From NCBI GenBank assembly GCA_900128565.1, contig LT635932.1, positions 1 through 43,188 of the forward strand: DNA of 43,188 nucleotides, written 5' to 3'. Numbering within the stretch: the first letter of the stretch is position 1; every line of letters starts with the position of its first letter. The notes under the pieces are model-generated. The model ran no database searches. It had not been told where the DNA came from and saw only the letters and a list, made by a program, of their open reading frames with translations. Positions 1 to 42,536 of this stretch are shown piece by piece. The stretch is from Stramenopiles sp. TOSAG23-6. Taxonomy: Eukaryota. The position numbers were made by a program, and so were the translations under genes.

Positions 1-45
1 ATGGAATTAAAAGATGAAATGTCAGAGGCCGATTGTGTTGGGAGA
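1..45 (+). repeat. 45-bp exact copy of 19680-19724 (probable chimeric contig end)
   Basis: atggaattaaaagatgaaatgtcagaggccgattgtgttgggaga is identical at both places. It is in frame with the giant ORF only at 19680. Confidence 0.9.
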
Positions 46-3000
46 GACGAATAACCAAGCATATACTAAATGTGAACCTTGTCCAAATGGAAAATATAAC
101 AAGGATGAAGGAACTGCTTGTCTATTGTGTGCTCCTGGCAAGACTACCACTTCTTCCAAAGTTAAATGTGACCCATGCACGGCTGGTAAATTTTCTGACG
201 ATAATAGAATTTGTCAAAATTGCCCTGGAGGTGAGTACGTTTTCATAATTCATTTCAAATTATTTTTTTTTTCATCCCAAATTATATATCTAATGAAATT
301 CAAACTATCCACATATTTCCCCAAAATACATATACACTAACGACAGCGGGAAATCAGATTGCATTGAATGTGGGGTATCAAAATGGAAAGCAGTAAATGG
401 AAACACAAAATGCGAGTATTGTCTAGCAGGCAAAGGTACGATTGTTGGTAGTGTATCTGATTCCTCAGACGACTGCATCCCATGTCAAAGTGGTCAGTAT
501 AGAGATAAAGAAGATGATACTGAATGTAAAAAATGCGATCATGGGAAGTACACAGGCACAGCCGGACAATCAACATGTACAGACTGTCCTAGTGGGAAAA
601 AAGTAAAGGACACACAAAACCCTGTAGTATGTTTAAAATGTAAAGACGGGAGATATCAAGATGAACCTGGACAAACAACATGCAAAGAATGTGATCCAGG
701 AACTTATGCCAATGATGTTGAACCCAGTAAAATATGTACACCATGTGAAAAAGGAAAAACACAACCTGGTTTTGGATCAGCGTCTTGCACGAGTTGTGTA
801 GGAGGGAAATATATGGATGATTCTGGAAGTCCGGCGTCAGTGTGCAAAGCTTGTGAAACAGGTAAATACCAAAGTGGTGAAGAACAAAGTGAATGTATCG
901 CATGTGCATTAGGAAAATATGGTGAAAAAAGTGCTGAAAAAATTTCTGCTACGGATTGTATTGTTTGTCCCCTTGGGAAATATGCTCTTGTAGAGGCGAA
1001 GTGTGAAGTATGTGAACGTAATAAATATTCAGACAGTGTTGGGGCAACATCATGCACATTATGTACACGGTGCGCTCCAGGAACATATAATGACTCCTGT
1101 CGTGAAAGACCAGGTGGTAATACAACTAGTGGCTCTTGTATAACTTGTGAAACGGGTACGTTCTCATACGAATACACATATAGTAAAGAATGTAATGACT
1201 GTGATGCTAGTTTTGGGGAGGATGTGGGAATGTTGACACAATCGAAAGATATTGCAGACAAATATGGACACATGTGTGTACTTTGTCCCGAGAAAACGTA
1301 TTTCAGTGGAATTTGCAATACTGGAGTTGATCTCATTGAAAATCATTCATTTGAACTTTGGGAAAAAGAAAAAAAATGTCTAGATTTTCCTGTAGAAAAG
1401 ACACCAAAGGAAGAATACAATATCACTACTGGATTTTTAATTTTTAATAGTAATACAAGTAGTACAACGGAAGAAGATAATTGCAAGAACAAATGTATAG
1501 AATATGCATACATGTCATTTAAAGATGACAGTCAGACAATCGAGTGTCACTGTTCCAATAAAGAATGTGTAATAAACGATAAAGATGAAATTGAACTTTA
1601 CCAGGATGAGAACACGAATACCTATCGAAAAGTTACACAACTGGATTGCATTGCTTGTCCGAATGGTAAACACACAGATGAATATGATCCTTCAAACGTT
1701 ATCGGATGTACTGGGACGTGCGACCCTTGTGAAAAAGATCATTATAATAAAGATTGTAATGCTGATGACGCTGGGAAAAAAGGGGGGAAATGTGAAGAGT
1801 GTAAATGCAAAGCAGGTGAACATGTCACCCTGTGTAACGAAGGAGTGAGAGGCACAGAAAATCTTATTTGTGAGGTGTGTGAACGTGGGAAATACTCCGA
1901 ATACAAAGAAGACTCCAGTCGGCACCCACAAAACAGTCGGGAGTGTGAACTTCATGAATGTCCTGCTGGAGAGTATGTTGAAGGAAATATCACTCCTTTT
2001 AGTGGTGGGGAAAAAATATGTACTCCATGCCCTCAGGGGGAAAGTTATAGAAGTGTCGCTTTAAAAGGTCTAGACCTCTACAATGATAATTCAAAAACGG
2101 GAAATGATTATACTTCAGATATGGGCAAAGAGTGTGATCCGTGTGTATGTGGTCTAGGACAGAGTTATGGGGGTTGTACTGAGACATCTGTTACATGTCT
2201 TGATTGTGATGATAATTTTTTTCAAGATCAAATTGACCATAGGCTGCCGTGTGAACAATGTGAATGCCCTGGAGGATATAAACTAAATACAGGATATTGT
2301 ACAACAAAACAGAAACGAGCTAAGTTTCCAATATTTCCAACATGTGTGGATGATAATTGCGATGCAAAAAAAAAATGCTGTCCTAAGGAACATGATATTA
2401 TTAGTTTTTCCCCTATTTCTAAATATTTTTACGCTTGTGGATACACTATCCAAGATAAAGAATATACAAATAAAACTAGATTTGAATGTCAAAAAGAGTG
2501 TGATGAAGATGAAACTTGTTCTGGTATCTCCTGGAATGCGACTATTGATAGTTGTAAACTGAAAAATGTGTCTGCGGATGAGCTTTCAAAGGAACAATGT
2601 GTACCTGATGAAGGATACTTTTTCCAAAAAGACGATGAATATAAAATGCAGTCTATTAAACCAACCCTATTGTATGCTTGTGAAGAACACACAATAACAA
2701 ATGAAGGTACTCATACAGTTTCAACCAGATTTGATTGTCAACAAATGTGTGATGAAAAGGAGAGTCCTTTGTGTTTTGGTATCTCCTGGAATCCAGATGC
2801 CGCTGTTGGTACTGATAATTGTAAACTGAAAAAAACGCTGTCTCCTGAAAATGACCTTACAACAGAAAAATGTGATCCCGACGAAGGATACTTTCTTCAG
2901 AAGAGCAAAAAATATAGAATACTGAATAGTCAGGAGGAGATACGTTGTGAAGAAACAGAAAACTGTAAAGTAGAACATAATCATATGTGTACTAAATGTG

Positions 3001-6000
3001 AAGCTGGAAAATTTGGTGATGGTACTAGTACAGAATGCACAGAATGTACGTGTCCTGAAGGTACCTATTTAGGATCCACATGTGATGGAGAAGGAACCGC
3101 TGTATTCAACAAAAAAGACCACTGTATCGCATGTCCTGAAGGCAAACAAAAAAGTGAGGAAAATGCTGAGAAAGCGTGTCAGGATTGTGTATGTGCCGAT
3201 TTTGGCTTTAGAAGTTTGGGTTGTAACAATAAAGGAAATGAATCAAATTGTGTCGAGTGTGATGGTGGAACGTATGGTACACTACAAGAGGAAAGTCAGG
3301 GAAACACAATTCTAAAAAAATTAGGCTATGATCACAATTCTCAACTACATGCGTGTATAGGATGCGTAAATTGCCCAGCTGGAAAAGAATCAACATGTAA
3401 AAAGTATGTACCTGAATTTAAGCCAAGTGCTCAGGATAAGTGTCTTGAAATATCATTTAATAAAAAAAACGATTCTAAAACAAGAGCTCAAAAGGAAATT
3501 GCATGCAACACTGATTTTAAATTGTGTGAATGGAAAGAAGATAATACTTGTGAGTATAATTTAGATTGGACGGAATTTGATGACAACTTGGTTTATGGAC
3601 AATGTTCTGTAAATGAAGATGAAGCAAGTTGTCTGACAGCAAGTGTTTGTAAATGGGGCATCTCAGAAGATCAGGCAGAAGTAGACAAGTATTGTCAAAT
3701 AAATGATGTACAAATGATTGCACTTAAAGGAAGCACGGGCATGTCCAAGAATGATGACACATTCGCGACATGTCAACCATGTCCTGCAGGGAAATATCGA
3801 AGTAGTGATCATGTAGAATTATGGTGTGTACCTCTTAAGAAATGTTACAATGGCGAATTAAATGAGAATAGAGGACAGCAGGAAATGATTGATGAAGGTA
3901 AATGTTCTGGGTGTCCATCGGGAAAGTATAACCAAAGTACCCACCTTGGTTTATGTAAACCAATTCCATATCAAGGGATTTGTCGGGACTCCGAGAATGA
4001 GGAAGATTGTAATAAAAACGACATTTGTAAATGGAATGAGAGTGGGTGTCAACTAAAAAAACCAGTACACACAGGCACAATGGCACTTTGTTCGAATACC
4101 CGTGTAACTAAACAACGATGGGACAATGATGACTTAACTGTAGCAACAACTGGTTGTTTTTCTATTAAAGATGAACATGGTGAACGAGCATGTTATTTTG
4201 AAAAATTTCCTGAAAATGAGATACCAAAAGAGATGTTGTGTGTACCTTATGTTCCACAAAAAGAATTCGTTTCAAATGTTAAGATAGCTATGCAGGAAAA
4301 TTCTACATGTGAATCTAATGAAACAAGAATATTTATGGAGAATGTTGTAAATTTTTGCAAGAATATTCCAGAATTTTATACTTGTTCTTCTATTTCCTGT
4401 AATAGTGGCGTCTCTCATTTTAGGGTTACTCTAATAGAAGAAACATCAGGACGAAGACGACTAAACACTGCAGATATTGACGTACAATCCTTGTTAGAGA
4501 AGGCATTTGAAGATAATAATTTTCTAGACCAAGTAGATACGACTCAATTAGTTGCAGAAAGTCCTGTACAACTTCCTTCAGATTATAGCTGCAATATTGG
4601 TTGTGTTAACACAGACTGTGATTTAGATATCAAACTAACAACTGGTCCAAATCAATGTAGGCGTTGCACAGAGTTAGGCTATTATCTGAATAAAGCGGCG
4701 AAAAGATGTTCAGCTTGTCCAATTGGTAGATACTCTGATATTCCTGAATTGGAAAGTAAAGATGACTGTAAGTTATGTGGACCCCACAAATATCAAGACG
4801 AGATGGCGACGTCAAGTTGTAAGTTTTGCCCAGTTGGTAAATATGTGAATTCGCAAGGGTCCTTTGGTGCAGAATTTTGCGAAGATATACATTCTCCATG
4901 TGATAGCAGTCCTTGTCAAAATGGTGGAGTATGTATTGATAATGATGAAGATGTGAACATTGCACTGTTTATCTCTGATATTCCCGATACAAATTGGGGT
5001 CATATATTTAATGGTCAATACTTCAATAATATCTTTGAAAAGGATTGTACAGCCGAAGGCTGCAAAGAAGGTGTATCTGATTGTAATGGAATTACACAGT
5101 ATAGAAAAAAAACATCGTATCAAAATGGTCCATATTTGTATTTGTATTATGAACCTATGCGAGAAAATACAGGATTCTGGCACATATCAATAACAGAATG
5201 TTCAGGGTCACTTACTCGTAGATTTGGTACATTAGAAGAAATCAATACAGACACAACAAAACAATATTATATTCCAAAATTTGACAATGCAGATGCAGAT
5301 AATTCAAAATGGGGTGACTCTAAATGGGGAAACAATGTCACTGAGGCACACCTTGAATCCTATGTGAGCTTAAGTAGGGATAATGTATCTTTCCAAGGAT
5401 GTCTTCGTTCAGTTAACAGATTTGGTGATGCAAACTCTGGAACTTGTGTTACAAGCGGTGAAAGTTCAATACGATTACGTAATGGTGATCCATCTATTTC
5501 GAAAGATGACATTGCAAAGAATTGTCATACACTATGTTACAATAAATCCGCTGCGTATAATGAAAAACCATGGCCTGAAGGTGAAGATAAGGCACTTAGT
5601 TTTGAAGTATTTGACAAAACATCTTTGGATGATGATATCAATGTTCCAGCAACATGGATCATGGAATGTAAGGAAGCAGGTACGATATTTTTACAATTGA
5701 CATGGAGAGAGAAATATATCAAAATAGTGGCAGAATCAATGACAATTACTCAACTGTCTGATAAAATAATTGACGTATTAAATAATGGAAAAAATGAAGC
5801 AGATAACTGGGATGCAAGTAACTATGGTGCTACAAGTACTGATTCTTCAAGCCTTGTATGTTCTTCAACGCCACAATCTATCACAATTACATTGCCTTTC
5901 TCAATGTCATTATACTCGTTGAAACCCGAGCTTACTACGACTCAGACTGTAGGTGGTTCTGACTGGCGTAATGGAGAGTGCACATGCACATTCAAGACAT

Positions 6001-9000
6001 GGGATTCTACGTGTACTGACAATTCGGAAAATGGACAACACATTAAGAACTACACAATACAATCTCCAACGGGCCCAGCCATATCATTTAAAGACCCAGA
6101 AAATGAAAATATTTGGAGTTTCAAATCATCAGGGAGGTGTAGCGGGCAATCAATTTATCTCATTAAACCAAATTCACAATCCTCAACTAGGACACAGTTA
6201 GGAAGTGGAACTTACTCCGCTGATTGTACATGTGGTGATAATGATGATGGAGATCCTTCTCAAAATGAGAACTGCTGTACAGGGGGTGTCACCACACTAA
6301 ACGATTGTAAAGACTTATGCTCTGCGGAAACTGATTGCGAATACTTTTCATATTATAATGGACACTGTTTTCAAGAAAATTTCCAATTAGATAATAATGG
6401 TTCACCAATAGGATTAGAGGAAGGAAATTTTGATGTATATGAAATAGGATACGATCATGTCATTAGCACTACTAATAGTGAATCTTTAGATAGCTGTAAA
6501 ACAGCTTGTATGAGTCACAATGAGTGTAACTATATATCCTTTACCGAGGGAAACCCAACGAAATGTAGTATTTTCAAAGGTCAATGTAAAAATTTTGATA
6601 CTACAATTTCAAGAACATCAACATATCAAATAATTCGAAAAGTTATGCGAAATTTAATTGTAGAGGACCATATGCGTGTTGGTCGTCCAAATATTATATA
6701 TACTAAGTATAATGGTAGCAGTATTGCCAATGCACATAACTGCCGGCAAAAGTGTGTCACACTCGGCGAGGAGGGATATTATTTTAATTGGAATGCAGGA
6801 AATTCAAAATGTTCTTGTTCTCCTGTCGATGCTGCGCTAAAACCTGATGAACATTTCATTTCTGGTCATGCTTACGGAGGAGTTGGTCTACCAAAATGGT
6901 GTGAACCAAAAGATGGCGAATCATATTGTAATGGAAACGATCCACTCTTTACTGAAATCACACAACATGCGATTGATTTTGGTATTGATTGGTTTGCATT
7001 ATCCTGTCACATAAATGACAGTGGTGAAGCTGATTGTTCACATTCAGATTCCACATGGAAATTTGGAGCCTCTATCATCTCCGAAATAGTTTTTTCAAAA
7101 TGCGCAGGAAATAATATTGGGTGCTCAGACTCCTCTGATAAGACATGTGGCAATAAGCAAGATAAACTATGGGCTGTGTATAACATAAATTATCTTTCGC
7201 GAAAGTTTACAGAATACAAAATTAAAGCTAGAAGATATGCAAAGACTGGAGTAAACGCCAATGAAACAAACATTCCAACTTTATTAAAACGTCAATATCT
7301 TGGTAAATATGTAGATTTTGGTTTATCACCACCATGCTACAGTAAAACAGTGAGTTCAACAGTTCCCGCATCAGTTAGTGCTCTAGTATCTAATTTAACT
7401 CCATCAGTCACTGAGGTTTCATTTTCAGTAAGAAATGACGAATATGTAACATTTTATCTTAGTGAGGATGAAGAGATGGGATCAAGTGACATTTCAATTA
7501 CTTTGGGAAAAAAAGTCAGTGGTGATACAATCGATACAATTAAGTATAATGGGACTGAGTATTTATTCAAGCACTCCGAGCAGGATAGTAATGAATATTC
7601 TGATCTTGTTCAAAACAATAAAATGTCTAATTATTGGGTGAGGTGGAGAGACGATAAATTAACAATTGGTTCTCCAGATCGCAAAGGATCATGGGGTGAT
7701 TGGACGACTTGTGCAAATGATGGGGGATCTTGTTCATGTGAGCGTGGTAGAGTTCGATATGGCCTAGAAGGGAATTGGAAAATACTCCCTTCACACACTG
7801 AACTTTCTTGTACATCAAGTACTTTTGGTGGTGAACAGAACAGTAATAATATTTGTGAATGCAGTACTTCACGAAATGAATGGTTTATGGATATTTCAAT
7901 TGATAATGTATCTATAAATTACTTTTTAGTCTCAACTGGGCATTGGTGGCTTAGAAGTCCATGTGAAAGAAACCACGGGAAAGAATTTGGAATGCATTCA
8001 ACAAGAGTAATTGGTCCGTCTTCAAATAGAACCTCTTTTGATGAACGAAAACAAGGGTGCAATGAAATAAATATTGATACTGCTGGTGGAGATTCGCCTC
8101 AAGCATTAATCAGCATACCAGACGATACATTTAATATGGTCCTTGAAATTAAGCCTACATCAACTTCAAGTTCAATCGATATTATACTAAGTTCCGGTGA
8201 GTCGGATTCTTCGTCTTTTCTTTACAAAGTTTCTCTAAATGTTCAGGAAACAGACGGTAATAGCAATGACAGAATAGTGAGCAATGATGGTGATATTTTA
8301 ATCAAATCAGTCGATACTCTTATAAAATCAACAGACAGTTTTGTGAAACTTTGGATTTCCTGGGAAAATGGAATTATACGCGTTGGAAAAAATGCAGTCG
8401 TAGAACATGAAGAGTTTTTACAGGCATTTGTCCCGCGTTCATATCGCAAAGTAAGTCATGTGCAGGGACACTCGGATGTAGATGTGTCCTGGCGTATATG
8501 GGATTCTTGTAACATAATTACAACTTTAGATGATTGTAAGAAAATGTGTGACGAGTGTGATGGTTTCAAACTTAATTGTGAATGTGACTGTATTTTATTT
8601 GGTAGTTTAAATAGACTTGAAATGCAAGGTAGAAAATCCCATTATCCAGGTATTTTATCTAGTTCAAAGTATTTGGGGTGTCTTGAGTTGAATGACGTAA
8701 ATCGAAGTAAAATATCGATTTTGAATTCACCTGCAAATCATTCCATTCATAATTTGATGNATGCTNGNTTTTTGGATGCAAAATATTTTGGAACGAAATG
8801 CACCGTGAGAAGAGGGAGTACATGTGAAACGATTCAGGGATTTGCTTTTGAAAACCCACCTCCTATAGTTGATTGTCCAGGGGAAAAGATTGAGTGTTTC
8901 GAACAGCCTGGTATACGAAAATATTGCGGGATTCGTGGTGCTGGAGATGAATATATGAATTACCTTACTGTTTATGAAACCCCTGGAGTTTGTCGTTTGC

Positions 9001-12000
9001 AAAAACAATGCTATACTCCAAGTGTATTCCTCGATATCACTGAAATACCAGACATGTCATCATTTGGAGGTAGTAAGGTAATTTACAATACGTATATTAA
9101 ACCCCAACATAAATGTAAATGTCCGCTAGGTTTTGGAGGTGAATTTTGTGAAGAGGAAGATTTACAATTTAAGTGTGCTTCTTTGTATAATAATTGCTAT
9201 GGACATGGAACTTGTAGGAGGGGTGTGTGTGACTGTCAAGCGAGTTTTGATACAAATACGCACTGTAGAACATGTTTGGATGGTTATATTATGAATGAAG
9301 ATAATGAATGTAAACCTATTGAAAATGTTACGAAAAATCGCTGCACAAATTTCTTACAAAATTCGGGCTGCTTCAATTTAAATGGAGCTCCGACCGGAGT
9401 AAGTCTATATACTTGCGGAAGTTGCAATGATCCAGAGACTTCAGAAACACAATGTAAACCACGTGATGATCTCTGTCTTGATGCCTATATAAAAGGTATT
9501 GGAAGCTGGGGCTCTGAAAAATGTACAAATAATAATAGCTGTATCTGTGGGGCAAAGGGCGATTGTGACGGAAATGGCGAAGACTGTGATGCAGCAGGTA
9601 TATGCACAACAAAAGTAGACGAGAATACCCATAAAAAAGAAATTGAATGCACATGTGAAGATGGTTTTGAAAAGGTAACATGCGACACCGATGAAAGCAA
9701 TACCAAAACTGGTGTTTGTGCATCTATAGATATGGGACTTACAGATGATAATTATTATTCACGATGTTATGACATAGATGAATGCAAATTAGATGATTCA
9801 AATCCATGTGGTATTGGTGGTGTTTGTACACAGACGGATGATGGAAAAAGACTAACGCGAAATGCATTTCATTGTACGTGTTTGGAAGGCTACAAAAAGC
9901 ACCCCACTTCTGAACCTCAATGTGTTTTAGAAGATCCTTGCAATCAAGGAGATACATGTCCTGAAGAAAGTAATCCGAATTCTTCATGTCTGGAGACTAC
10001 ATATGGTCATATTTGTCCTTGTAATGGAGGTTACGGTAAAGATTTGCCGATAGAAAAATGTATAAAATGTGCAAAAGGTAAATATAGTAACGCGAAAGCG
10101 CATGGCAATTATTTCTTTTTGGATAATCAGCGTCATGTTTTTCATAGCTGTGGTAGGAAGAGTGGGCCATCAGGACCAACTGCAGGAGAATGCAAGATGA
10201 AGTACACCACAGGTACAAAAAATAAGTGGGCAAATGATATACGTTTTTTTAATGTAAAAGAAGGCGTTCAAATATGGACAGTACCAGCCACTGCATATTA
10301 TGATATAACTGCCGTTGGTGCAGATGATCCTTGGTCAGTCTGTGATGAAGGTGAACCTAATTGTAATACAACTGCTGATAAATCAGGATGCCGGGAATGG
10401 TTTTATCCAACAAATAAGCAAACAGTTGAAAGAGGTTGCCGTTCTTCAAGTAGAGTTAAAGGGAAGGGAGGGAAAGTTAGTGGGAAATTTCGGCTATTGA
10501 AAGGGTCCCAAATATTAATGATTGTAGGACAAAAGGGCACAATTGGTACTAGCACTGACTCTACCAATCCCGGTTGTCGCCGTATAGGCCAGGTGTGTAG
10601 TTTTAGTTCTGGGGGCTCCGGGGGTTCATTTGTCGTCCAAAGTCCTGCTATAGTGACCATTACACATCCATTACCTGATGGTCAATTTATTCCTATTGAT
10701 ATTCCAGACACTTTTGATGTAGAAATAAAAGATTTCCCTTATCTCAAGTGCCCAAATAGTGTATTAGGTTGTGAAACAGGAGAATCAGAATGTTTAATAG
10801 TGTTGTCGGTCATAACTTTTTCATCAAATGAAAATGAAGAGAATAAAACAATTAGAGTAACTACATCCGGTGAAGGCTGGAAAGGCACAGTGAAGTTTAC
10901 ATGTACAACTCATCAAGTAAATAATGAAGAAGAGCAATTTACCATTACATCGTCAGTTGGAAATGTATTACTTGTTGCTGGTGGCGCAGGAGGTAGCGAA
11001 GCTAATTTAAAAAATCCAAATGATGGCCGAGAAGGCGGAAATGCTAGATTTAATGTTTTAACAAACCATACACAAGTAGACAATTTAAGTGGTCGCGGCG
11101 GTAGTGAGCGTTGGCTTCCTAGAACCATCACCCATATAAATTTTACAAGTGAGGGTAGTACTGTTGGTGGCAAACATTATACCTCTGGACTTGTTGCATT
11201 TGAGTGCGAAGATCCTTGTACAAATGAACTGAATGCAGCAGATTGTAGTAGCAGTAACAATAATTGTGAATGGGAGTCTACCATACAAATGTGTTTTTCG
11301 AAAGAAGCAAGAGGTTGTGGTTGTGACCCACTGCCGGAGGCATTTGTTGAAATTACCGATTGTGATACTCCAACAACATGTGAAAATCGCTGTACAAGTG
11401 AAGGACATTGCTGTAAAAGGTCTCTTGGTTTTATACCATGTGTTGAGTCGTGTGAATGGAGAGAAGAGAATAATAAAACTGAATTAGAATGTATCAATTA
11501 TTGTAACACTTCATTGAATGGGGAGCGCGAGCCTAATGACGATGTTGCAAGCTGTTCTTGTGAAATCCAAAGTATAGAAGAGTGTCGGAGAGGGTGTAAA
11601 CTAGCTGGATCCTTGGGAACAAATCAGTGTCGTCTTAATGATGTGTGTGATTCTCAGTCAATTGAATCCATTACTGTGACTAAAGGCGGACGTTGCCTCA
11701 AACCTCCAATAGCAATTGCTATTAAACCTACAGGCGTAATTGCAAAGTATGTTTACCGTGAACTAAGGGAGTTAGTAGTCACGGGTAAGATGGTGACTGA
11801 TATTAACTTTAAGTCAGGTGATATTTTATATATATATCGTCACATTGATCGCGAATACAAACCTCTAGGTCGCGTTGAGTCTATCACTAAAACAAATTAT
11901 TTAGATGTACTCACAAGAGACGAAGATGTTACTACATCAGAAACTAGAAATCATGTTTCATCATCAATTATATTTAGTAAAGTTTCTATTGAAACTGCAT

Positions 12001-15000
12001 CTGGAATGCTTAACAGTGACGACCTATTAGAAAATCTATTGAATGTTGTTGAAAATGAGGAGATATTTAATGGATCGGGTTCCAATGATAATACAGAAGA
12101 TGTGTCGTTGCAAGTTTATACGGATCGTCTTCGGGCAGCAAATGCTTCTTGTGATGGATCTGGTGGCGGAGGATTTTTGAGCTCTGGAAGTACATATTTA
12201 TTGAGTGAGAAAACTGGTGGGGCTTCATTTGTTAATCTAGGTAAAGGGAGCCACAAAGATGGTATTCATTATGGAATGGGTGGGTTTGGTGGTGGCGGTA
12301 GAGGTGGCACAAATTGTGGTGGCGGTGGCGGAGGAATGGTTGGTGGAGATTTTGGTGCAAGTGGAGAAGATGCAACCAACCCTAACGAAATCTCTTCTGA
12401 AAGAGGTGGGCAAGGTGGAACAAATTATGTTAGTCATGTTGCGGAAGAAAACAGTTCAACAGATACGTTGCGTACAGATACACTATATTATGGAAATGGT
12501 TATATTGAGATCAAATTCAGCGATCCGAACCACCCAATCAACAGTTCTTGTATAACTTGTCCTTCAGGTAAATTTTCTGATCCAAATAAATATGAAAGTG
12601 GGAGACCTACTGTAGACTGCAAAGCTCATACTATAATTGTTGATGATTGCAGTAGCCAACAGAAAATATTTATTGCTGGAACTTCAGAAACTGATTCAGA
12701 ATGTTTACTTTGTCCAGCCGGGAAGACATACACATCACATATTGAAGATGATGTTTGGGAAGGATGTGCTGTATGTGCTGTTGGAAAATGGAATCACTAT
12801 AACTATAGAGATCCTGAAAATTGTAGAATCAAAAATAACAAAGCTTCTTGTGAAAGTATGGTAAATTGTGAATGGAAGCGGGAAGACGCGTGTATGGTGG
12901 GAGATATAAATATAGCGTTCTTAAATGTGTGTGTACGTGAAACAGGTGATAGCATTCTCGATAGTATATCAAATGAAAATGATTGTGTTAATCTGGGTCA
13001 TATTTGGCATTTAAGTGGTTCACGTACTGATGGTTGCCCATGGACTAATGCTTGGGCTGAAGGAAATCCAATGTGTGTAGATGATTCATCCTGTGATAAT
13101 CATTCTCAGCAAGATTGTAATGGAACTTCCTATTGTCAGTGGAGTGACACAGACAATATATGTAGCTTACGTGTTGGTTTTTCTCCATGCAATACAACTT
13201 TGAACAGAGACGATTGCAATTCAAAGTCGCTCTGCAAGTGGGATGATGACAATTCAACACTTCCACGCTGTAAAGGAATAAATATACAGCATGCTTGTAG
13301 GAACTGTCCCATTGGTTTTTATATTTCAGACAGTACAAATGCTAGCAAGCACTCTTCAATAATAGAATGCATTGATTGCAGTACTGGTTATTATACTTCG
13401 GACCAAGTCAATTGTACCGCTTGTGTTCCAGGAAAGTACTCATACCATCGAGAAGTGGCTTGTACAAATTGTGAAAAAGGGNTTTTTTCTGCTAATCCTG
13501 GTTCTGCGCAATGTACCCCATGCATTCCTGGTCGTTACACTTCTGATGGAGGAAATTCTGAATGTCGGCTTTGTGAAAATGGCTCTCATACATATAAATT
13601 TAATAAACGGATAAAAGAGGTCTGTCAAAAATGTATTGAGGAAAATCCTGATGACCCTGAAGAGTGTCATTGTGAATACAAATTCAATAAACAGAAAAAA
13701 GAGGTCTGTCAAAAGTGCATTGAAGATAATCCTGATGACTCTAGTGAATGCCATTGTGAATATAATGCATCAAATATCATTTTTTTAAATACTATGTATC
13801 AATCTACAGAACTTTTTAATTTTACAGAAATTCTATTTGATGCATCTGCAGCAGATTATGCAACAGCAATTGAAAACTGTGATGATACAAAACCCGTTCT
13901 CCCCAAAATTGCAGATGGTAATGGTAATGATGAGTTATATTGTAGTCGTGGTGCCTTTGCATGCAGACAGTGTATTGTTGGCAAATACTCGCCCGAATCT
14001 ACTACAAAGTGTATAATATGCCAGGCGGGAAAGTATCACTCATCAAGTGGTCAAAGCGAATGTATTGATTGTCCGATGGGAACTTATAATGATAACCCCG
14101 ATCCTACTAGAGATGCTTCAGAAGTAGCCAAAGTAGAGGAACATATCAATATAACCTCATGTCATATTTGTAAAGGTGGAAAGTATCAACCTAATTTAGG
14201 AGTGGAACGAGAAATCGGTTGCATTTTATGTCCTGCGGGTACAATAAACGAGGATTGGACAAACACAGATTCTGATTATGCATCTGCTAGATCAAATGCA
14301 CTGGCAGAGGGTGGTTCAATTCAGGATTATTTAAACTTTGCTAGTATGTATGATAATGAAATAGATTGTGACTTGTGCCCGCATGGTAAATATTCTACAA
14401 CTATTGGAGCAATGACATTCGCAAATAATTGTATAGATTGTCCTCAAGGATCATGGAATAACGGATATTTGCAGTTACCATATGATGCAACCAAACAGAA
14501 AAAATCGGATTTCCACAATAAACTTGATGACTGCATTGTATGTGAAGCTGGGAAGTACCAAAATATTACTGGGGCTACCGAATGTAAAGTCTGCTTCCAT
14601 GGTAAATTTAATCCTACATCTTATACCAATGATCAAGATCATGTGGCATCTACAGCAAATAATGCCGTTGAAAGAGGCTTTGATTCTCTTGATGATTGTA
14701 AAAATTGTCCTGTTGGTTCACACATTAAAGATCACCAGACGCTTGCAGAAAACCACGACCAACTATCGGATTGTAAAACATGTGTACATGGTGAATGGAT
14801 GTCAACTGGAGGATATAATCAACCTTGTACAAAGTGCTATGCTGGAAGGTACCTTTCTAGTGAGTCATACCCAAGAAGTGCTGATGGCATCGAAGAGAAA
14901 AAACATAATTCGAGATGGGATTGTAAACTTTGCCCTGCAGGCAGGTTTAATGAAACTCCAGGTTCAAAATTTTCCAATCAATGCTTGTCATGTCCAGCAG

Positions 15001-18000
15001 GAAAGTTTATTCTTGAAAGCGAGAAATGTATAATTGATAATGGGGTAGATGTATTTGCTCAGCCAACATGTGTAGAATTGGAGGAGGATAAAAGCTGTTT
15101 CTGTAAAAGTGTTCAGGAGTGTGAAGTAATGAATAGTAATACAGGTGAACATTGTAGTAACTTTGACTCTGAAGAAGCATGTGTTGATTTATCAGTGGGT
15201 TTTCCAATGTATTGCAAGTGGGAGTATTTACCAAGGGCCGTTACACATGAAGTGGAAGGCAAAGTAGTATATTCTGAGTGCTCTAAGGAAGAGCAAATCT
15301 GGTTACCTGTACCAACAAATATGGATGAATGTTTAGGAACCTATTCATCACCACTAGCGGAGACTCGCAACCAAGCCTCTGATTGCATTGTTTGTCCTCC
15401 AGGGAAATATAGTGGTGAAGGCCATGGGGATATTTGCATCGATTGTGAAGCTGGTAAGTTTAATGGCAACACTGTTCCCAGGGCAATGTATCGATTACGA
15501 GAAAGCTGTGAAGCGTGTGCTGCTGGTCAATACGAACCCGAGACAGGACAGACAGAATGCACCAAGTGTGCCGCAGGTAAATATAATCCTTTGACTTATT
15601 CAGAAGACGAATCAGCATGTATATTATGTCCCGACGGGCGATATGCTTCATTCGAAGGTAACACTAGTTTTGAAAGGGAAGATAATTTATCATGTAGATT
15701 ATGCCCAATTGGATATTATATTGGAGGAAAAGGTCAAAGTGAGTGTGTTCCAAAACCCACTGTCCATGGATGGTCAGGTTGGCTCAATGGTTTGTTCAAC
15801 AAAAAAGTCCGATTAACATTCAAAGTAAAACATTTACTGCCACACGAAGCTATGGAAAATCGTAATGATGGTGGCACTCCAGAGGAAGGTACATATTACT
15901 GGACAATGTTGCCGTATATTAAATTTACTACAAATGAGTGCAACTCATCAGATACTTTTGATGATGCTACTGATGGTTTACATGGCGAGCTACAATATTC
16001 TAGTTCAACTGAAGCTTACATTGATCTACAACCAATAGAAAAATGTGTACCATCTGTGGGTATTGACAAGGGAGTATTTTTTTCAAGAAATGTTACAAAA
16101 GAAAATTGTGAGAAAAGTTTCAAATTTGGATGTATTGTTCAAGGTCAAAATATATCAGATAAGGACACATGTTTAGAAAGATTAACTGATGAAAATGGTG
16201 TATTGGTTTTAAGGAAAAGATCTGGTGATAAGAACGAATGTTTATCTAAAGGTCTGCTATGGGTACCAAAATTCAGTGGTGAAAAAACATGTCCATCTCC
16301 TGCTGAATGGAAGAAGATTTTCGGTGTTTGGGGGCACCATCCTAGAAACGATCACAATTTGTGCTGGACTAATTACTACCCAACAACGAGATGGAACGAT
16401 GTTCGGTACGCTTTCCCTCAAGGTCAAAGTCTGCATGGGATTGGACCGTACCAGAAGTTGCCCAATTATCATTGGAATGCTAATATTTGTAGACTTGATG
16501 AGCCACCAGAAGATGTGACAGGTGATGATTTAGCTGCATATTTAGTAGCCAAGTGTACTAAATGTTTTAATGATGTGGTAACTGATGATATAAATATGGG
16601 AGGAGAACTTGTTATGAAAGATAATAGATGTGAATTAACATCCCCACCTTATTGGACTACTCCTTTTGTATATGATCGAGTAGCTTTACAAATAGTCTCA
16701 GTAGGTGACATAATCGTTGCTAAAGCACCTGAAGCATATGGGCTTGATATGAACTTGGAAAATGTCACAGAATATATGTTTTATTATAGATATGAAACAC
16801 CTGGAATAGTTGGTAAGTGTATGGTAAGAGATTCAAATGAAAATCTTGTCGACATTGAATCACAAAATGTATGTGTAGGCCCTAATGCAATTATCAATGA
16901 GGATTGGGATACAAAAGATGCTTGTGAGGAAAATGATGGTATATGGCATCTTATGAACACAAAAGAGGCTGGGTGTCCTTGGTGTATAATTGACAATGAA
17001 GACATACACAACAAATCTGTGTGTGTACAAGCTCCTAATTTTACAAGTCTTTTAAAAGATAGGAGTGAAAGTAACTGCGCAACTAATATCAATGGAAAAA
17101 AAGGTATTTGGAAGAAACCGAGTGATGCTTGCCGATGGTGTTTATTAGATAATGGATTTAATATTATGTCTGGTTCAGGTCAACATTGTGTAAAGCTTGA
17201 TTTTTCTAAAGTTATACCTAATCGTACTATATCCAATTGCTCCACTGGTGACGAGGTTGGACTATGGTATATTAATGGCGAAAATCCTCTTAATGTATGT
17301 GTAAAGTCTGACTCAAAAGCAATTGAAGATGCAGATGATAAAAGTTGCGCAACAGGAGAATTTGCTGGGTACTATTTAAAACGTGAGAAAGGTCTTGTAA
17401 CATCCCAATGTGTCGATCGAACACGAGTGGACCAATCTGGTGGAATGCCACCAAATCCAGCAGCTGTCAATTTGTCTGAAACTGATTGTGCAACATATTC
17501 AGGGTATGATTGGATAGATGCTGGTAGAGGTATCATTGATTGTAAAACAAGAGCATCATGGCAAGAAATCAAGTACATTGACTGGCAATTATCACAAGTT
17601 ATTGTTGATGGGAAAGTCGTCCCCAATGTAGGAGGTGTTCAAATTATTGATGGGCTTTTAAATCAACAGGGTATTGAAGTGAAAGTTGTAGCCATAAATG
17701 GAATGAGTGGTGACAATTTGGATGAATTGCTCGCTACTAAATCTAGTCACACGCTTGAGGTGCTTATGGAAGTTGTACCCCCTTCTCCGCCAACATGGAG
17801 TAAGAAAAATCCTGTTGTGAAACACCGCAATGAAGAAATTCATTTCATAGACTTGGACTTGACATTTAAATGTCCTTTTGATGGTGGTCGCGATATTAGA
17901 AGATTTACATTTAACATCAATGGCGAGGATGTGATCCCCCCCCCTCCACCACTGGAAGTACCATGTAAAAAGGACTCAGAACTAAATTACATTCTCAAAA

Positions 18001-21000
18001 CTACGCAATCCGGGAAATTTTCACTAAAGATGAGAGCAACTAATGGCCCATTACCATCAGATTGGGGTGCATATAGCACAGTACAACAAGTAGAGGTATG
18101 TGGTAAAGGTACATTCTACAATAGCAATACAGATTCTTGTGATGATTGCCCACAAGGAAGATATAATCAAACTGGGTTACAACAACGAGAGTGTATAGAA
18201 TGTGAAGCTGGTTTCTATTGTCCTGCAACCCCTGAAGGTAGAATTACACCTGAACCATGTGGAGGTATACCAGGGAGTTATTGTGAGGCTGGAAGCCATG
18301 CCCTTGGTTCATGTCCTCGTGGCTTTTATTGTACCAAGGGAAAATTCAAGCACTCTTGTGATCCACCATATGATCGCGCATGTATGGTGGGTGGTGTAAA
18401 TATTGCAATGAAAAATATATGTGTAAATCTATCAGGTTCTGGTATTCTTGATGATATCTCAAACCAAGAGGACTGTGAAGAAGCTTCTGGAATTTGGCAT
18501 ACCCGTGGTTCAGGTGCTAGTGGTTGCTCATGGAATAAAGCTTGGGTTAAAGTAGAAGATGAGGATTCTCAGATAAGTTGTAATGACTCTGATACATCTA
18601 GGTGTAAAGCTTTATATTGCCCAAGTAATTCTTCTCGCCCAGAAGTTTGTACAGCTGGGTCATATTGCTACACATCATCTACTAAAGTCTCTTGTGGAGG
18701 TAACGGTAATCATTGTCCTCAAGGGTCATGGGAAATATCATCGTGTCCTATTGGACATTACTGTCCAACGTCTTCAAAAATGTATCCATGTGAATGGATT
18801 CCAGCTGGAACTGGAAATGATCGATGTCTACCATTCTGCGATTCCGTTGAACAAAAATTCAGATTGATAAGTCCGGATATTGGGTGGATTTGTGAAGGTG
18901 CAAACCGAGTCCCAAAGAAATGTGATGCAGGGTTCTACTGTGATGGTGGCGATAGAAAGTATTCATGTGATTATCCCTTTTCTGGTTGTATGATTGGAAA
19001 CGAATATCATCCGGAATATACAGATGATTCAACTTGTGAAGGCAAGGGTGGTGAATATTCCGCTTTTGAATACGATGAAAGTGATAAAGGAATACAAAAT
19101 AAGTATTTTAAGGCTGGTAATGAAGAAAGTATTGAATTGGCATTTTATTGTGAAAAGGGATCATCAGAACCCAAAATTTGCCCCGAAGGCTATTTTTGTT
19201 CAACATCTGAAAAAAAGGAAAGATGTTCTGCTAGTGGTTCATATTGCCAGGCTGGTAGAAAATCAGCTGAAATATGTAGAGCAGGATATTTTTGCCCAGA
19301 TTCAAAGACATCCATTAGTTGTGAAGATTCAGGAGATAAAAGGTGGTTGTGTAATGCTGGATCAGCTGTAAGAACCCCATGTCCACCAGGTTATACATGC
19401 CCAAATGCAAAAACAAAAGAAGCTTGTCCACAAGGTTTTTACTGTCCAGGAGGCGTTGCACCTAAATCGTGTGTATATTCTGATGATATTGAGGACGAAA
19501 ATATCATTGAAGAGTTTGCATTTTACTGTCCACCAGGAGCATCAAAGCCTCAGAAGTGCCCTCGGGGTAATTATTGTACGCTGGGTTATAAATTACACTC
19601 TTGTCATTCATACAACGTTGATACATGTATGGTATCGGGTGTAAATATAGCAGCACAAGATATATGTGTATCTGAGAGCATGGAATTAAAAGATGAAATG
19701 TCAGAGGCCGATTGTGTTGGGAGATATACATGGCATAAAAAAAATATTGGTCAGAGTGGATGTATGTGGTGTGGAGTAGGTTCTGTTGACATTCATGATA
19801 AGAGTGTATGTGTAAGTATTGATGGTAAAAATATTCTTAAGCGAGCAGATCGTAATGCATGTGAAGATCCATCAGACGGACAAGATAAAGGTGTTTGGCA
19901 CGTTGCTGGAGGTGAATGTCTGTGGCCATCCTGGTATATTGCAAAAATGCCTGAAGAAGCTAGATATTGTCCTCCTGGATCAAAAACATACAAAATATGC
20001 TCAAAAGGGCATTATTGCGAAGATGCAAATGCAGAAGTTGCATGCCAAGCAGGTAATTTAGACCAACGTGCATATTACTGTAAAAAGGGTTCTTTTTCTA
20101 TGAAACTATGTCCTGCGGGGAGTTTTTGTCCATCAAATATTGAAAAATATTCATGTGTATGGAACGAAGCTGAAGGTGCTGAAAATGCAATTGAGCTGAA
20201 AAATCCAGATAAGCGGTGGTTTTGTAAAGAAGGTTCGGAAATACCAATTCCCTGTCCGGGTGGAAAAGTGTGTGGTGAATTTGCATCTTCACAGGAAGAC
20301 TGCCCAAGTGGGTTCTATTGTCCGGGTGGGGAAGCTCCGATTAGTTGTGCAATAAATACCAACAACAAGGCATTTTACTGCCCCAAAGGATCTTCAGAAA
20401 AAACGTTGTGCCCTAAAGGCTATTATTGTGAATCAGGAACAAACAAATATCCATGTGATGCACCTTTTCATCATACATGTATGGTTGCAGGGGTGAATAT
20501 AAATCCATTAGACATATGCGTTGATGCGAAGGGAGAATACTTAATGACTGAAATTTCAGAAAAGAAATTATGTTCTGGTGTTTGGCATACTAAATGGAGT
20601 GGGGCAAAGGGTTGTACTTGGGCTTGGTGTATTGTTGCAGGCCAAAATATTCATGATAGGGACGTTTGTGTTAATGATGATCATTCGAATATCTTAGAAA
20701 GAAATGAAGCTACATGTACAGATGTCATTGATGGTGTATTTGGAAGTTGGCATAATATTGGCGATACTTGTAAATATAATTATATAACATCTTGGTCGGA
20801 ATCAATAGATTCAACAAATCCTATTGGAGAATGTAACAATCCAGCTTATTCGACTCCAAATGAATGCCTAGTATATGGTGGGATATGGACTGCTCTGCCA
20901 AATTCTCACGAGTGGACAAAAGGAAAAGGAATTGATCTATATTATTATTGCCCGGAGGGTTCAAGTACATACGAGCCTTGTGCGTTTGGTCATTATTGTC

Positions 21001-24000
21001 CAACCGCAAGCATACAAATTCCTTGTTTGAGTGAGATTGGTATTTCATGCCCACCAGGAGTTAATAAACCACTTTTATGCGAAGCGGGGTATCATTGTAA
21101 AACACCAATGCATAGAGCATCATGTGAATGGGATGCCAATTTAACAGGTGAGGAAATGGCAGAGCAAGAAAACACATTGAAAACACCAGACGATGCGTGG
21201 TTTTGTCCCCCAGGCACTAAAATTATAGCCAATTCTGAGTGTCCAAGTGCTTATTATTGTACAGAAGGGATGTACAAACATCGATGTGATGCGCCATTTG
21301 AAACGTGTTCCATTGATGAAAGAAAGACTGAGTCAGAATGCATTTGGGGTTTATTCAATGATTATACAATTGAAGCTACTGATTCAAAATATGATGGTTG
21401 TACTTCTACAAGTGATACTACAGCATGTGATCATTTTTGTAATGTATGGACATTGATTGGTTCATTAGATGATTGTAAAGTTAAATGTGGTAATTTAACA
21501 GATTGTATCGGCTTTGACATGACAACTGATGTGTGTATTGTTGCCAACGAAGATATTACACATAAACATAAATGTATTGCTACTGATGGCCAAAGTTTTA
21601 TTGAAGTCAATACGAAAGTTGATTGTGAAAACGGTTCTGGAATCTGGCATGAACGAGGTGGAGGAAAAGAAGGATGCAAGTACTGCTTTGTTGGGGGCGA
21701 AGATATCTCAAAAATTGATGTATGTCTAAGTGCGGATGGAAATACTATTTTAGGCCGCGATGAAACGGATTGTGCTGGTACTTGGAATCTTAGTGGAACT
21801 TGTCAATCACCATCTTGGATAACAAATACGTTTTGTATTGGTAAGATGGCAGACTGCTCTCTAGCGGAACCAAATATACTTTACAATGGTTACACTCCAT
21901 ATACTAAGGTAGAAGAGTATACCCAAGAAGATCCAGGTAGAAAGTTTAGCGTGTGTGACAATTGTGGTAATGATTGTCAAGCATGGGACCCTACCCCTAA
22001 ATGCAGCATCGAAGAGTGTAAATCTAGGTGTAATAATGATCCATATTGTTATGGTATCCAAACAACACCTATAGATGTGTGCATGGTTGGAGATGTTGAC
22101 ATATCACAAGAAAGTGTTTGTGTTCAGGGTGGTGTTTCAATATTGAATGATGACGACATTGACGAGATTGCTTGTGAAGAAGGTGGTAATGTGTGGCATC
22201 GAACAGGTAGTGGTGAGAATGGATGCTTGTGGTGCATTGTTGATGGTATAGATATTCACGATGAGGACATATGTGTCAGCATCGATGGAAAATCTTTTCT
22301 CTCACGAAAAGACCCGGGTGATTGCGAAAATCCAGAGTCAGATGATGCAGTTGCTGGTATATGGCATTCCGAAGGGGGAAAATGTAACTGGCCTTCATGG
22401 TATTCTACTTTTGATTGTAAAGGAGTATACAAAACTTGTAAATTAGGAGCTTCAGGTAGTAATAAGAGTGTTATTTCGTATACTCGTCGAATAGAAAGTA
22501 ACATTGGTAAGTGGCTGAAACCAGAAGAGGGTAATCCAGATTTTGATAGAAATAAAGCACACTACTGTCCAGCGAAATCCAAAGTCCCCCAACGTTGTGC
22601 CCAAAACCATTTTTGCCCCGATTCCAAATTCCAGTTTGAATGTGCAGCGGAAGGTAATCCAGGCGGTATTTTCTGCCAAGAAGGCTCATTTGAGGCTAGA
22701 CCGTGTGACTCAGGAAGTTTTTGTCCCGATTCAAACACCAAAACAAGTTGTGTATGGGATACACAAAACCCTAAAAATAATGATGCAGAGAATCTTGTAG
22801 ATGCAGAACACGAATGGTACTGCCCACCAAGCTCCAATAAACCTATTCCGTGTCCTGGTGGTCATCAATGTGAAGGCGCAAAACAAATTATTCCTTGTCC
22901 TGTAGGAAGCTACTGCAGTGAAGGAAAATCAGCAATAGAGTGTGTAAATTCTGATAGTTCAACCGGGGGTTTTTACTGTCCATTGATGAGCGAGGAAGAA
23001 CAATTTTGTCATGCTGGATTCTATTGTAAAACTCCGACTGAGAAATTCAGTTGTGATTTCCCGTATATTCAAGGTACATGTGTGAAGGACACTAGATATT
23101 GGCCAACTTCAGGAAATCTCCCAGAAGCAAGTGACTTGAATCATTGCAAATCTCTTAATGGAAATTGGCAATATAAAACTGACGAAAATATTGCTAGATG
23201 TATGCTTCCTAATGGCGCCGATGTTGTCCAAAATAGAAACACCCCAACTCTTTGTGAATCTCCTGGTAGTGATGGATTAGTAGGTGTATGGACTCGTGCA
23301 ACATTAGCACGATATTGTCCTCAAGGTTCAAAAACACCAAATGTTAAATGTGAAGCCGGTTTCTATTGCCCAAAGTCAGATACAAAGATTCAATGTACAG
23401 ATTCTACAAGTTATTGTCCCGAAGGATCTTACGAACAAAAAAAATGCCCAGTCGGACATGTTTGTCCAAAGGGTTGTCTACGCAAGTTTACAAACAACGA
23501 GAGAATTCCCGATAGATTGTGCCCGGATCCAAATTCTAAGGGTACTTGTATATTAGATATACCTGGAGGAATTTATCTTTTAGATTTATCAATAACTGTA
23601 TCGTCTGATTGCACCAGTGGAGATGGAAATTCAGAAAATATTTGGCTTGGTTCAACCCTGGCAATATCGTGTATGTATTCCTCGGGTGGGTTATCACAAC
23701 AATATTTAGATGCAATTATAATGTCTATGTTCAATGACAATATTGATAATTATAATAGGTTGTCACTTCAAAATGGTATTTTAGGACATGCTATAAAAAG
23801 AGATGGCTCTGTCAAATGTTCTGACAAGAGAGAAGACGACAGTGGAAATAAATATACACAACGTCTTATTATCCTTGATGATCAACAATGGCATTGTGAT
23901 GATGGTCGGTATCTTATTGAATACAAGTATCGTCGTTGGTCATGCTTAGATGTACTAAATGCAAACGAGAAGAAAAAAGAAAAAGGTGCCGTGGGCAGAA

Positions 24001-32236: not shown

Positions 32237-32502
32237 TACAGCATACAATATTTGGTTTCCAATATGTTCCTCGGGATGCTTTTATGATGTGTGAATTTAT
32301 AATTTTCGATTCGATCAACTGAGAAACAAACCTGTTTGCGTTTTGACCGCGAGTCGTCGACTGACTTTGTTGTTTGCGTTTGCTACTTTTTATACAGTCA
32401 GTCCACACGAGGCACGAAGTGCACGACGTTGGTGCAGGATAAGGCGCATGTTCCGCGATTTCATCAGTTGTTTGCTCTATTCACTGTAGTATGTGTTGAA
32501 CT
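32237..32502. promoter_or_regulatory. Short divergent (likely bidirectional) promoter region between HDAC and GTPase
   Basis: 266 bp between head-to-head ATGs, relatively CpG-rich compared with the flanks. Positional inference only. Confidence 0.4.
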
Positions 32503-41098: not shown

Positions 41099-41851
41099 TT
41101 ACTTTTTCAAAACTTGAGATAGAAATGTTTCCTTCAACATAGGAGTACTAAACATTGTATAAGTACCCTCGGTAGAAGCTTTTTGACCAATTTCCGTTGT
41201 TGTTGCAGTGCAATCAGTCAAAGTGATTACATTGAAACCTTTTTCATATGCGGTTCTCATGTATAGCGAAAAATATGTGACTGTTTTTTTTGTTAGGTAC
41301 GGAATTTAGTACAAAAAAAAATTGAAATTTAGTATGAAAACGTACATTGTAGACTCCACACAACAATTAGTGAGAAAGCCTCCAAGAATTACTGTTTCAA
41401 TATCATTCGATATGAGAAGATTTTCAAGATTCGTATTTGTGAAGGCATCTAGTCCTTTTTTGCCCTTTACAACAAGGTCATTTTCATCCGGTTTCATTTT
41501 TTCGTAGAAATCTGCATTCCAGGTATTTTCAGTAAAAAGAGAACCATCTTTGCACCCTGCAAGAATTCCAAGTTTGGAATTGGGATTATCACTTGAGTCA
41601 GCTTTAAACATTATTGGAGCATGTATAACAAGCATTCCACATTCACGAGCTTTCTTCGCAACTTCAACTGAATTTTCAAGCATATTTGTTTTTTGCATAA
41701 CATTTAGAACAGCATCATACATTTTCCCTCCCTTTGAAGTAAACTCATTTTGATACTCAATGAAAACACACGCCGACTTTTGAGGAACAATATCACAGCC
41801 TCCTTTAGCATCGGTGGCATTAAATACACGGTCTGAAATAGTATTTGTCAT
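41099..41851 (-). CDS. Isochorismatase-family cysteine hydrolase, ~221 aa; exons 41851-41346 and 41258-41099
   Basis: IEYQNEF, VIHAPI, KGKKGLDAF and GFLTNCCVEST, continuing after the intron with MRTAYEKGFNVITLTDC. Stop TAA at 41101-41099. Confidence 0.9.
41259..41345 (-). other. Intron (87 nt, contains in-frame stop), non-canonical GT...AT, family member C
   Basis: Minus strand gtacgttttcat...ctaac...acatattt...atacat. Removal restores the family motif CCVESTMRTAYEKG exactly. Confidence 0.8.
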
Positions 41852-42021
41852 TTTATAAAGACCAATTCCTGATTTTCAAAATTTTACAATCAAAACAAGT
41901 TTTTGTTGATCAAGCAATTTGTACATGCCCATGTCACATGTCACACATAAAAAAACAATATTATATGACAGCAGCAGGCCAATGTAAAAAATTGTCAATT
42001 TGAATTTTCAACTAAAAACAT

Positions 42022-42092
42022 TGCACCGACCGGGAATCGAACCCGGGTCTTCCGCGTGGCAGGCGAATATTCTACCACTAGACCACCGGTTT
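42022..42092 (-). tRNA. tRNA-Gly(GCC), with mismatches at acceptor pairs 1:72 and 2:71
   Basis: 71 nt; D arm GTCTAGTGGTAGAA, anticodon loop CTGCCAC, T arm CCGGGTTCGATTCCCGG, 3' TCGGTGCA. A T5 Pol III terminator lies 3 nt downstream. Confidence 0.85.
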
Positions 42093-42536
42093 ACTTCTGC
42101 CGCATCATATGATTTTCATCAAATACAATCTGGTTGATCACTTTTAGTAATGAATACTCCGACTCAAATTGACAAAACAAAAATTTATTTACCTGGAATC
42201 GAAGTAATCTCTCACATAGTTGTCAAAATAAGGGACAAATGAAAATTTTGTAGAAAAAATTATACGGGATGAAAAAAAAATTCGAAATCTAATCGTAAAA
42301 TAAAATAGACCAAGATGTTTTTTATTTAAAAGTGTAATGTAAAAATGATTTTCTCTCCCAGTAGGTGATCCTTTTCTTATCAAAATCTCAAAATTTGACA
42401 AATTCAAAAAATGAAACTACTCCAAATTTGGAAAATGTTGAGTGTCACACCTCCCTTAGTCATCAAGTGTTGTACTACTTTACTGTAAGAATATTTCAGA
42501 TATTTATTTCTTCCATTCTTATTTTTTTTATTAAAT

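Follow-up and report, generated by a model that had tools for sequence, protein, structure and literature searches.

The window analysed here, i.e. the whole stretch of 43,188 nucleotides of DNA from Stramenopiles sp. TOSAG23-6, contains a giant gene for a Cys-rich repeat protein, the frame of which shifts across an A/T-rich insert near positions 235-331, referred to below as intron A. The upstream exon (46..234, + strand) encodes Cys-rich ephrin-receptor-like repeats (Pfam PF07699), ends in ...GGA GGT GA and is matched by an RNA contig over 106-232. The downstream exon (332..29594, + strand) is an open reading frame of ~9,750 codons, with Pfam matches on 333-932, and encodes a Cys-rich repeat protein with C-terminal hydrophobic segments; the 150 best representatives of its homologues all show 30-39% identity. 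The first 45 nucleotides (1..45, + strand) are a copy of 19680-19724 (100% match), and RNA contigs from three runs at 1-45 run on into the letters that follow 19724. This segment is probably an assembly join and not the start of the gene, so that the true 5' end of the giant repeat gene would be missing. Within the repeat region, the RNA runs depart from the assembly in a cluster at 775-1018, with about 17 SNPs and a deletion of 3 nt, which forms a divergent allele block.

Beyond this gene, an intronless ORF is found at 29663-32281 (- strand), which we take from its motifs to encode ankyrin repeats fused to a histone-deacetylase-like domain, and a tRNA-Gly(GCC)-like gene with an irregular-looking 5' end lies at 42021-42093 (- strand). 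An 807-nt intron at 33477-34283 (+ strand), located in what is presumably the gene of an EngB-like GTPase, reads CAG|GT...AG; its 3' end sets it apart from the family of intron A, and its removal joins TKSDLVEQ to KTLAKMKW in frame. Given this ordinary-reading intron in the window, AG ends still appear to be usable. A second member of the intron A family (41259..41345, - strand, 87 nt), in a gene that we assume to be isochorismatase-like, is of the form AT|GT...AT|G with redundant flanks, and its excision restores ...CCVESTMRTAYEKG...

Candidate junctions of intron A

Four splice models were put forward in the original prediction, and the codons given for all of them were reproduced. Removal of 235-331 (GT...AT) leads to GGT GAA TAC (CPGGEYTNDSGKSDC), that of 233-329 (GA...AC) to GGT ATA TAC, that of 239-335 (GT...AC), indistinguishable from 236-332, 237-333 and 238-334, to GGT GAG TAC, and canonical removal of 235-346 (GT...AG) to GGT GAC GGG (CPGGDGKSDC). 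Two further options are an intermediate register, 234-330, which yields Val, and a canonical-looking donor, GAG|GTGAGT, at 231; the combination of donor 231 with the AG at 346 was rejected, being out of frame. The flanks of intron A are indeed non-redundant, as had been claimed. The donor GTACGTTTT (235..243, + strand) forms 9 of 11 pairs with the U1 candidate of this genome described below, the canonical-looking donor at 231 reaching 5.5, whereas canonical U1 would favour 231 (8.5) over 235 (7). A branch-like motif, TCTAAT (289..294, + strand; TACCTAAC in the family), would put the branch A at 293, at a distance of 38 nt from the 3' end (family median 39). The 3' motif TATTTCCCCAAAATAC with the terminal AT (314..331, + strand) is the sole strong match to the family 3' matrix, which scores 14.2 bits at 331, -0.3 at 329 as the next best and -24.7 at 346. 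Moreover, 43 other places in the genome match the intron A stretch, 27 of them beginning exactly at 235 and 34 at 234-236, so that the insert is no chance occurrence.

The tempting acceptor CACTAACGACAG at 335..346 (+ strand) is a decoy, the A of which lies only 6 nt from the AG. As originally proposed, it is coding (Y-T-N-D-S in the frame of the ~9,750-codon ORF), as indicated by its retention in the RNA contig and by the repeat spacing. The argument that the canonical model breaks the repeat spacing was likewise borne out: among 9,917 repeats from the 150 homologous proteins, the gap from the G to the next Cys is of 10 residues in 63%, and the 5-residue gap of the GT-AG product occurs in 0.4%. 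At the variable position affected by intron A, the 7,132 repeats with the aromatic residue there contain Glu in 3.0%, Lys in 22% and Ile and Val in 0.01% each, Glu being ~300-fold more frequent than Ile. Repeat HMM scores are 25.3 bits for the models with Glu, 20.1 for Ile, 19.9 for Val and 10.7 for GT-AG.

Contigs from four of the 11 RNA runs were compared with the window, and intron A is spanned by one contig only, in one of these four runs and at low depth. This contig of run X1, which is 295 nt long with a depth of 3.3, aligns to 106-232 and to 332-497 with 'AA' in between, so that a net 97 nt is missing, and shows no other difference within 293 aligned bases. It reads GGT AAA TAC, with one mismatch to GT-AT (G233), one to GA-AC (T331) and two to GT-AC. 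The junction 234^347, which had been set as the test for refuting the non-canonical reading, is unseen, the single contig across the site keeping 332-346. Thus, to call intron A decisive goes too far: the site speaks against 234^347 and does not fix the register on its own, since the 97-nt models differ by 1-2 bases, the RNA population carries SNPs, and the contig is one mismatch from both GT-AT and GA-AC. Over 3 kb, 24 SNP sites and 2 indels separate the RNA runs from the assembly. G>A substitutions lead with 8 sites and none is T>A, a mild argument for GT-AT. From the same 24 sites, the chance of a SNP within 2 nt of the junction is ~1-2%; such a coincidence being improbable, the mismatch may point to alleles that differ along with the intron. 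A search for proteins encoded by further RNA contigs that cross intron A or the junction in LysRS (see below) gave none at the thresholds used. Taken together, removal of a non-canonical 97-nt intron is supported by the family matches, the frames, the RNA contig, the 3' matrix and the homologous repeats, and intron A is very probably best read as 235-331, GT...AT. It is the family-wide stop test, the residues of homologues and the U1 complementarity, and these only, that settle the GT-AT register.

The intron family and its register

A strict donor plus branch pattern gave 1,340 matches in the genome, against 0 in the control, comprising 236 with a non-T at -1, 342 with C/G/T then T and ~762 with AT, all family counts being inflated by duplicated contigs. 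The host genes of the copies span many Pfam families. The median length of the family is 97 nt, and the branch A of the motif TACCTAAC lies 33-49 nt from the end. Genome-wide, AT ends outnumber AG ends by 1,600 to 101 (~6% AG), a count that includes some off-register matches. For a closer description, 75 of 84 elements were used, taken from blocks totalling 132 kb that had been selected because they contain known matches. Their ends are AT in 54, TT in 5, AG in 4 and other in 12, so that AG is not the usual acceptor of these elements. Their starts are GT in 63, a share biased upward by the picking of donors according to likeness to GTAYGTTTT, and non-GT in 12 (GA 4, AT 3, TT 3, GC 2), some of which may be mis-calls. 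The automatic caller errs on the donor in tandem GTATGTATG, and two MCM5 cases were set by hand. Between branch and 3' end, AG occurs in 43 of 164 copies for 87 expected; as the 5' part shows the same degree of depletion (53 vs 98), there is no specific signal of AG exclusion near the 3' end, and the AGs present in the 43 copies must be skipped. The density of introns is very patchy, with 12 in 2.9 kb of MCM5 and one in the 29-kb gene of the window; the Prp8 gene (G000:C84) runs for ~7 kb without a frame-breaking intron.

The register was analyzed on loci deliberately enriched for non-T at -1, where 221 of 248 unique candidates received their 3' end from a matrix blind to the upstream flank. 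With the cut running from the GT to motif+2, 175 of the 221 copies keep 30 or more open codons to either side; shifting the 3' end by 1 or 2 lowers this number to 61 and 54. Seven of 171 copies with a confident frame were dropped because they end in other dinucleotides or correspond to the second copy of the window; one of these, with an end called AA, contains a register 0 stop. For the remaining 164 copies, junction stops number 0 for register 0 (GT..NN) and 1-16 in every other register from -6 to +6, including 4 for the GA-AC type and 3 for the GT-AC type; the frame filter biases this comparison toward register 0 with respect to the positive registers, -1 and -2 being unbiased. When the upstream dinucleotides of 76 non-redundant copies were shuffled, a mean of 5.0 stops was obtained, with 0 stops in one of 400 shuffles. 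As shuffling creates stops, the upstream dinucleotides behave as exon.

Homologous proteins give the same register. In the LysRS copy, AA|GT..AT|ATAC, the exons meet at human residues 406/407 and SPLAK is kept by register 0 only; its context is identical to that of the RNA allele of intron A. In the PGM3 copy the exons meet at 137/138, and the Ser of DTRPS is again kept in register 0 only, whereas for a copy in a PHD-finger gene the alignments of homologues end ahead of the junction residue. The MCM5 gene (G000:C80) contains 12 family introns in 558 codons, of which two end in AG, one is ambiguous and nine cannot be GT-AG; the intron at 726-836, also readable as GT-AG 722-832, was left out of the non-AG count. 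Aligned with two homologues, the protein spliced in this way reaches 761 and 683 bits and the longer public model P0001 676 and 624; in P0001, VYTSG is lost and the Walker B motif is replaced by intron-derived residues. P0001 bears a MAST label, and those homologues that have names come from stramenopiles. The same gene has a 13-nt micro-exon (1397-1409) between two family introns with the variant donors GTAGGT and GTCCGT.

The U1 candidate and the rest of the spliceosome

The sole U1 candidate found in the genome (G000:C1146:349-508) lies in a U5-U2-U1-U4 cluster and starts with AAACGUACAUGG and not AUACUUACCUGG, i.e. it carries U2A, U5G and C9A with respect to the Rfam consensus. It matches positions 1-166 of RF00003 with an E value of 3e-12 and a Sm site is present, the score of 54.1 bits being lower than the cut-off of 69.5. 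The gene is found on two contigs, identical over its length; C6122 is the same for the first 663 bases, with divergence beyond them. A U1-bearing contig also carries a family intron. The start of the candidate is the complement of CAU|GUACGUUU, the donor of the family, down to the exonic U at -1; in other words, its reverse complement, CAUGUACGUUU, corresponds to this donor together with the adjoining exon bases. The donors of the 75 elements form a mean of 9.4 of 11 pairs with this candidate vs 6.9 with canonical U1, a comparison that is partly circular on the intron side, because donors were chosen by likeness to the consensus, and not on the exon side, where A at -2 is found in 72% and T at -1 in 87% of the elements. 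The computed donor duplex amounts to -16.2 kcal/mol with the candidate and -4.6 kcal/mol with Rfam U1. A pattern search of the genome, the assembly of which is incomplete, gave 0 matches for canonical U1, and among 120 metagenome pattern matches for relatives of the variant, the 80 compared by blastn contained none similar to U1, U2, U4 or U5. The apparent removal from GT to AT in this marine protist, in place of the near-universal GT to AG, together with a variant U1 fitting the start signal of the family, suggests a rewritten splice-site code.

The remaining components read as ordinary. The branch-pairing GUAGUA of U2 is present and fits the family branch TACCTAAC, the loop of U5 is that of the consensus, ACAGAGA is present in U6, and Prp8 gives a gap-free alignment to human residues 1295-1794, the stretch TNAQRSGLNQIPNRRF being identical. 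One U2AF65-like gene was found (667-2628, - strand, G000:C433). The second RRM of its product aligns to human RRM1, and the RS-adjacent motif KKSNFTDGP is without the Trp that is needed in U2AF65 for the binding of U2AF35. None of 15 zf-CCCH matches in the incomplete assembly contains a U2AF35-like finger; a candidate on C1280 was rejected as another RRM protein.

Alternative readings, origin and known systems

The same splicing rule may hold and the X1 contig may nevertheless stem from an intron-free allele (GGT AAA TAC, with Lys), i.e. from a presence/absence polymorphism that would render this contig uninformative on splicing. We consider this possible, although not the probable case. As an RNA library may also yield contigs of DNA, an intronless allele would give the same contig; regarding removal as a lariat, what was obtained is one joined contig, equally compatible with spliced RNA or with such an allele. 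In favour of this reading, Lys is found far more often than Glu at the position concerned (22% vs 3%), the sole mismatch of the contig sits at the junction, and the RNA population shows the SNPs and indels described above. On the other hand, a spliced AA|GT..AT|A allele would yield an identical read, and the LysRS copy has precisely that context. Furthermore, the exact 22-nt flank of intron A, searched in metagenome contigs for other alleles, gave 0 matches, and no DNA contig with this flank was found there; the evidence from the whole family, the homologues and U1 is unaffected in either case.

Other alternatives concern the rule itself. With the register shifted by -2 (NN...AC, that is GA-AC here and AT-AC mostly), the family would consist of U12-like AT-AC introns, which redundant copies cannot tell from GT-AT and which lie one mismatch from the X1 contig; the branch CCTAAC also resembles the U12 branch motif. 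This is very unlikely, however, as it introduces 4 junction stops in long ORFs, replaces Lys by Ile in LysRS, Ser by Cys in PGM3 and Val by Met in MCM5, and puts at intron A an Ile that amounts to 0.01% in homologues. Moreover, the donor is GTAYGT and not the RTATCC of U12 introns, the U1 candidate pairs with a cut before GU, and a search of the incomplete genome for U12 snRNA gave no match, a weak point given that the control was silent as well. Canonical splicing to the next in-frame AG would obey the universal rule, finds CTAAC..CAG at 335-346 and agrees with the ~6% of family copies ending in AG. Still, it is refuted at intron A by the retention of 332-346, unless the contig comes from an intronless allele, and it would delete five repeat residues there; 51 of the 164 copies have no in-frame AG within -30..+60, and MCM5 would lose 21-96 nt of invariant motifs. 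We regard it as extremely improbable. A comparably small probability is given to non-spliceosomal removal, by RNA structure or DNA excision, as proposed for the non-conventional introns of euglenids: the terminal inverted triplet GTA...TAC and the duplicated flanks would fit, but intron A has no stable fold (-1.3 kcal/mol), and the donor, the branch and the U1/U2 complementarity are all spliceosomal.

We thus consider with good confidence that intron A is a U2-type spliceosomal GT...AT intron made by a short introner-like repeated element; it behaves as an introner-derived U2 intron, yet lacks the terminal AG. Copies with T at -1 carry traces that would fit this origin, with TT ends in 10 of 19 preceded by TT vs 2 of 89 others (p=1.3e-7) and GT ends in 8 of 12 preceded by GT vs 0 of 96 others (p=1.4e-9); among AG-ending copies, G is found at -1 in 14 of 38. 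That the last intron bases mirror the last exon bases is the signature of a 2-nt target duplication making the acceptor. Copies without T at -1 mostly end in an unmatched AT (54 of 56 share no base), intron A among them. This would be accounted for by subsequent drift, by conversion towards the consensus or by a second route of insertion. The inverted repeat at the element ends is limited to GTA...TAC (ATGTA...TACAT with flanks).

In the mechanism that we propose, an element of ~95 nt would bring the donor GTAYGTTTT, the branch TACCTAAC and the long 3' motif TTTTTCACAATAC, and a 2-nt target duplication (mostly AT, also TT, GT and some NG) would supply the last two bases of the intron; at intron A this duplication would no longer be visible (GA upstream, AT at the end). 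The variant U1 (U2A, U5G, C9A) may then pair with CAU|GUAYGUUU, a computed pairing that places the cut before GU and agrees with the exonic AT preference. The second step would occur at a YAU ~39 nt past the branch A, a position taken from frames and homologues, and the 3' site would be set by the extended 3' motif and not by the first AG. Lariat chemistry, expression and use of U1, transposition and the manner of AU acceptance are the parts that we infer. More generally, the usual context AG|GT...AG|G would have been replaced in this lineage by AT|GT...AT|G. The C9A change at the near-invariant C9 of U1 would read the last U of the exon, AT-duplicating introners would make both ends, and a 13-nt 3' motif would set the site of the second step, which would take AU, UU, GU or AG, possibly without U2AF35 and with a normal U5 loop and Prp8 core, a scenario for and against which we see even chances.

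In the accessible portions of PMC13326754 and PMC11282704, Fritillaria borealis and F. pellucida are described with 3' AT as the commonest acceptor (34% and 44%), a YAY triplet that both precedes the donor and closes the intron, a transposon origin and use of the U2 spliceosome, all of which are likenesses to the present family. Their donors are mostly non-GT there (AG/AC, AG/AT), and, in the part of PMC13326754 concerned, U1 is not diversified for such introns (two copies with identical 5' ends), a U2AF duplication and m6A changes being implicated instead. In the stramenopile, unlike these accounts, donors stay GT, one family dominates, and the pairing arm of U1 is changed. With regard to duplicated, divergent U2AF subunits, one U2AF65-like gene was found in the incomplete assembly. 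U1 arms co-evolved with atypical donors and pairing with intron positions are reported in the text available of bioRxiv 10.1101/2022.06.08.495308 for Entamoeba (ACAAAC) and Mastigamoeba (ACGUAC). The 5' arm of the present candidate is likewise matched to an atypical donor and shares its ACGUAC core with that of Mastigamoeba, but here C9A also pairs the last base of the exon (U at -1), alongside a non-AG acceptor. As for the introners of Micromonas, Aureococcus, Amoebophrya and Parmales, the sections available of PMC11282704 and PMC12130899 describe sets of hundreds to thousands of short, similar introns inserted at unrelated positions in genes, with one splice site co-opted from a target duplication. 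The present family resembles them in its many similar copies at unrelated gene positions and in a target duplication that supplies a splice site; it differs from these descriptions in that the co-opted acceptor is AT, TT or GT rather than AG and that the inverted repeat is of just 3-5 nt. In the same part of PMC12130899, the expected 3' sites of introners are AG and AC, other families needing RNA alignments. The words 'splic' and 'canonical' are absent from the main text of the single-cell genomics papers PMC5778133 and bioRxiv 10.64898/2026.04.17.719054. Our literature search, limited to main texts and largely to open-access papers, brought up no description of GT-AT introns in a stramenopile, nor of an altered U1 in one.

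U12-type AT-AC introns have a non-AG end as well, and redundant copies of the family can be written as AT...AC, but the register, the donor and the U1 pairing indicate GT...AT and the major spliceosome. The terminal AG is regarded as being read in the active site of the spliceosome. In most copies of this dominant family AG seems dispensable, while the U5 loop, the U6 box and Prp8 1295-1794 look ordinary, which makes it testable what defines the 3' splice site. If true, a U1 changed at the exon-pairing base would represent a rare natural co-evolution of snRNA and splice site, and the target choice of introners would be tied to the evolution of the spliceosome. In practice, the public gene models of Stramenopiles sp. 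TOSAG23-6 are damaged, as exemplified by an MCM5 without Walker B motif, and introner surveys based on annotation would overlook families ending in AT.
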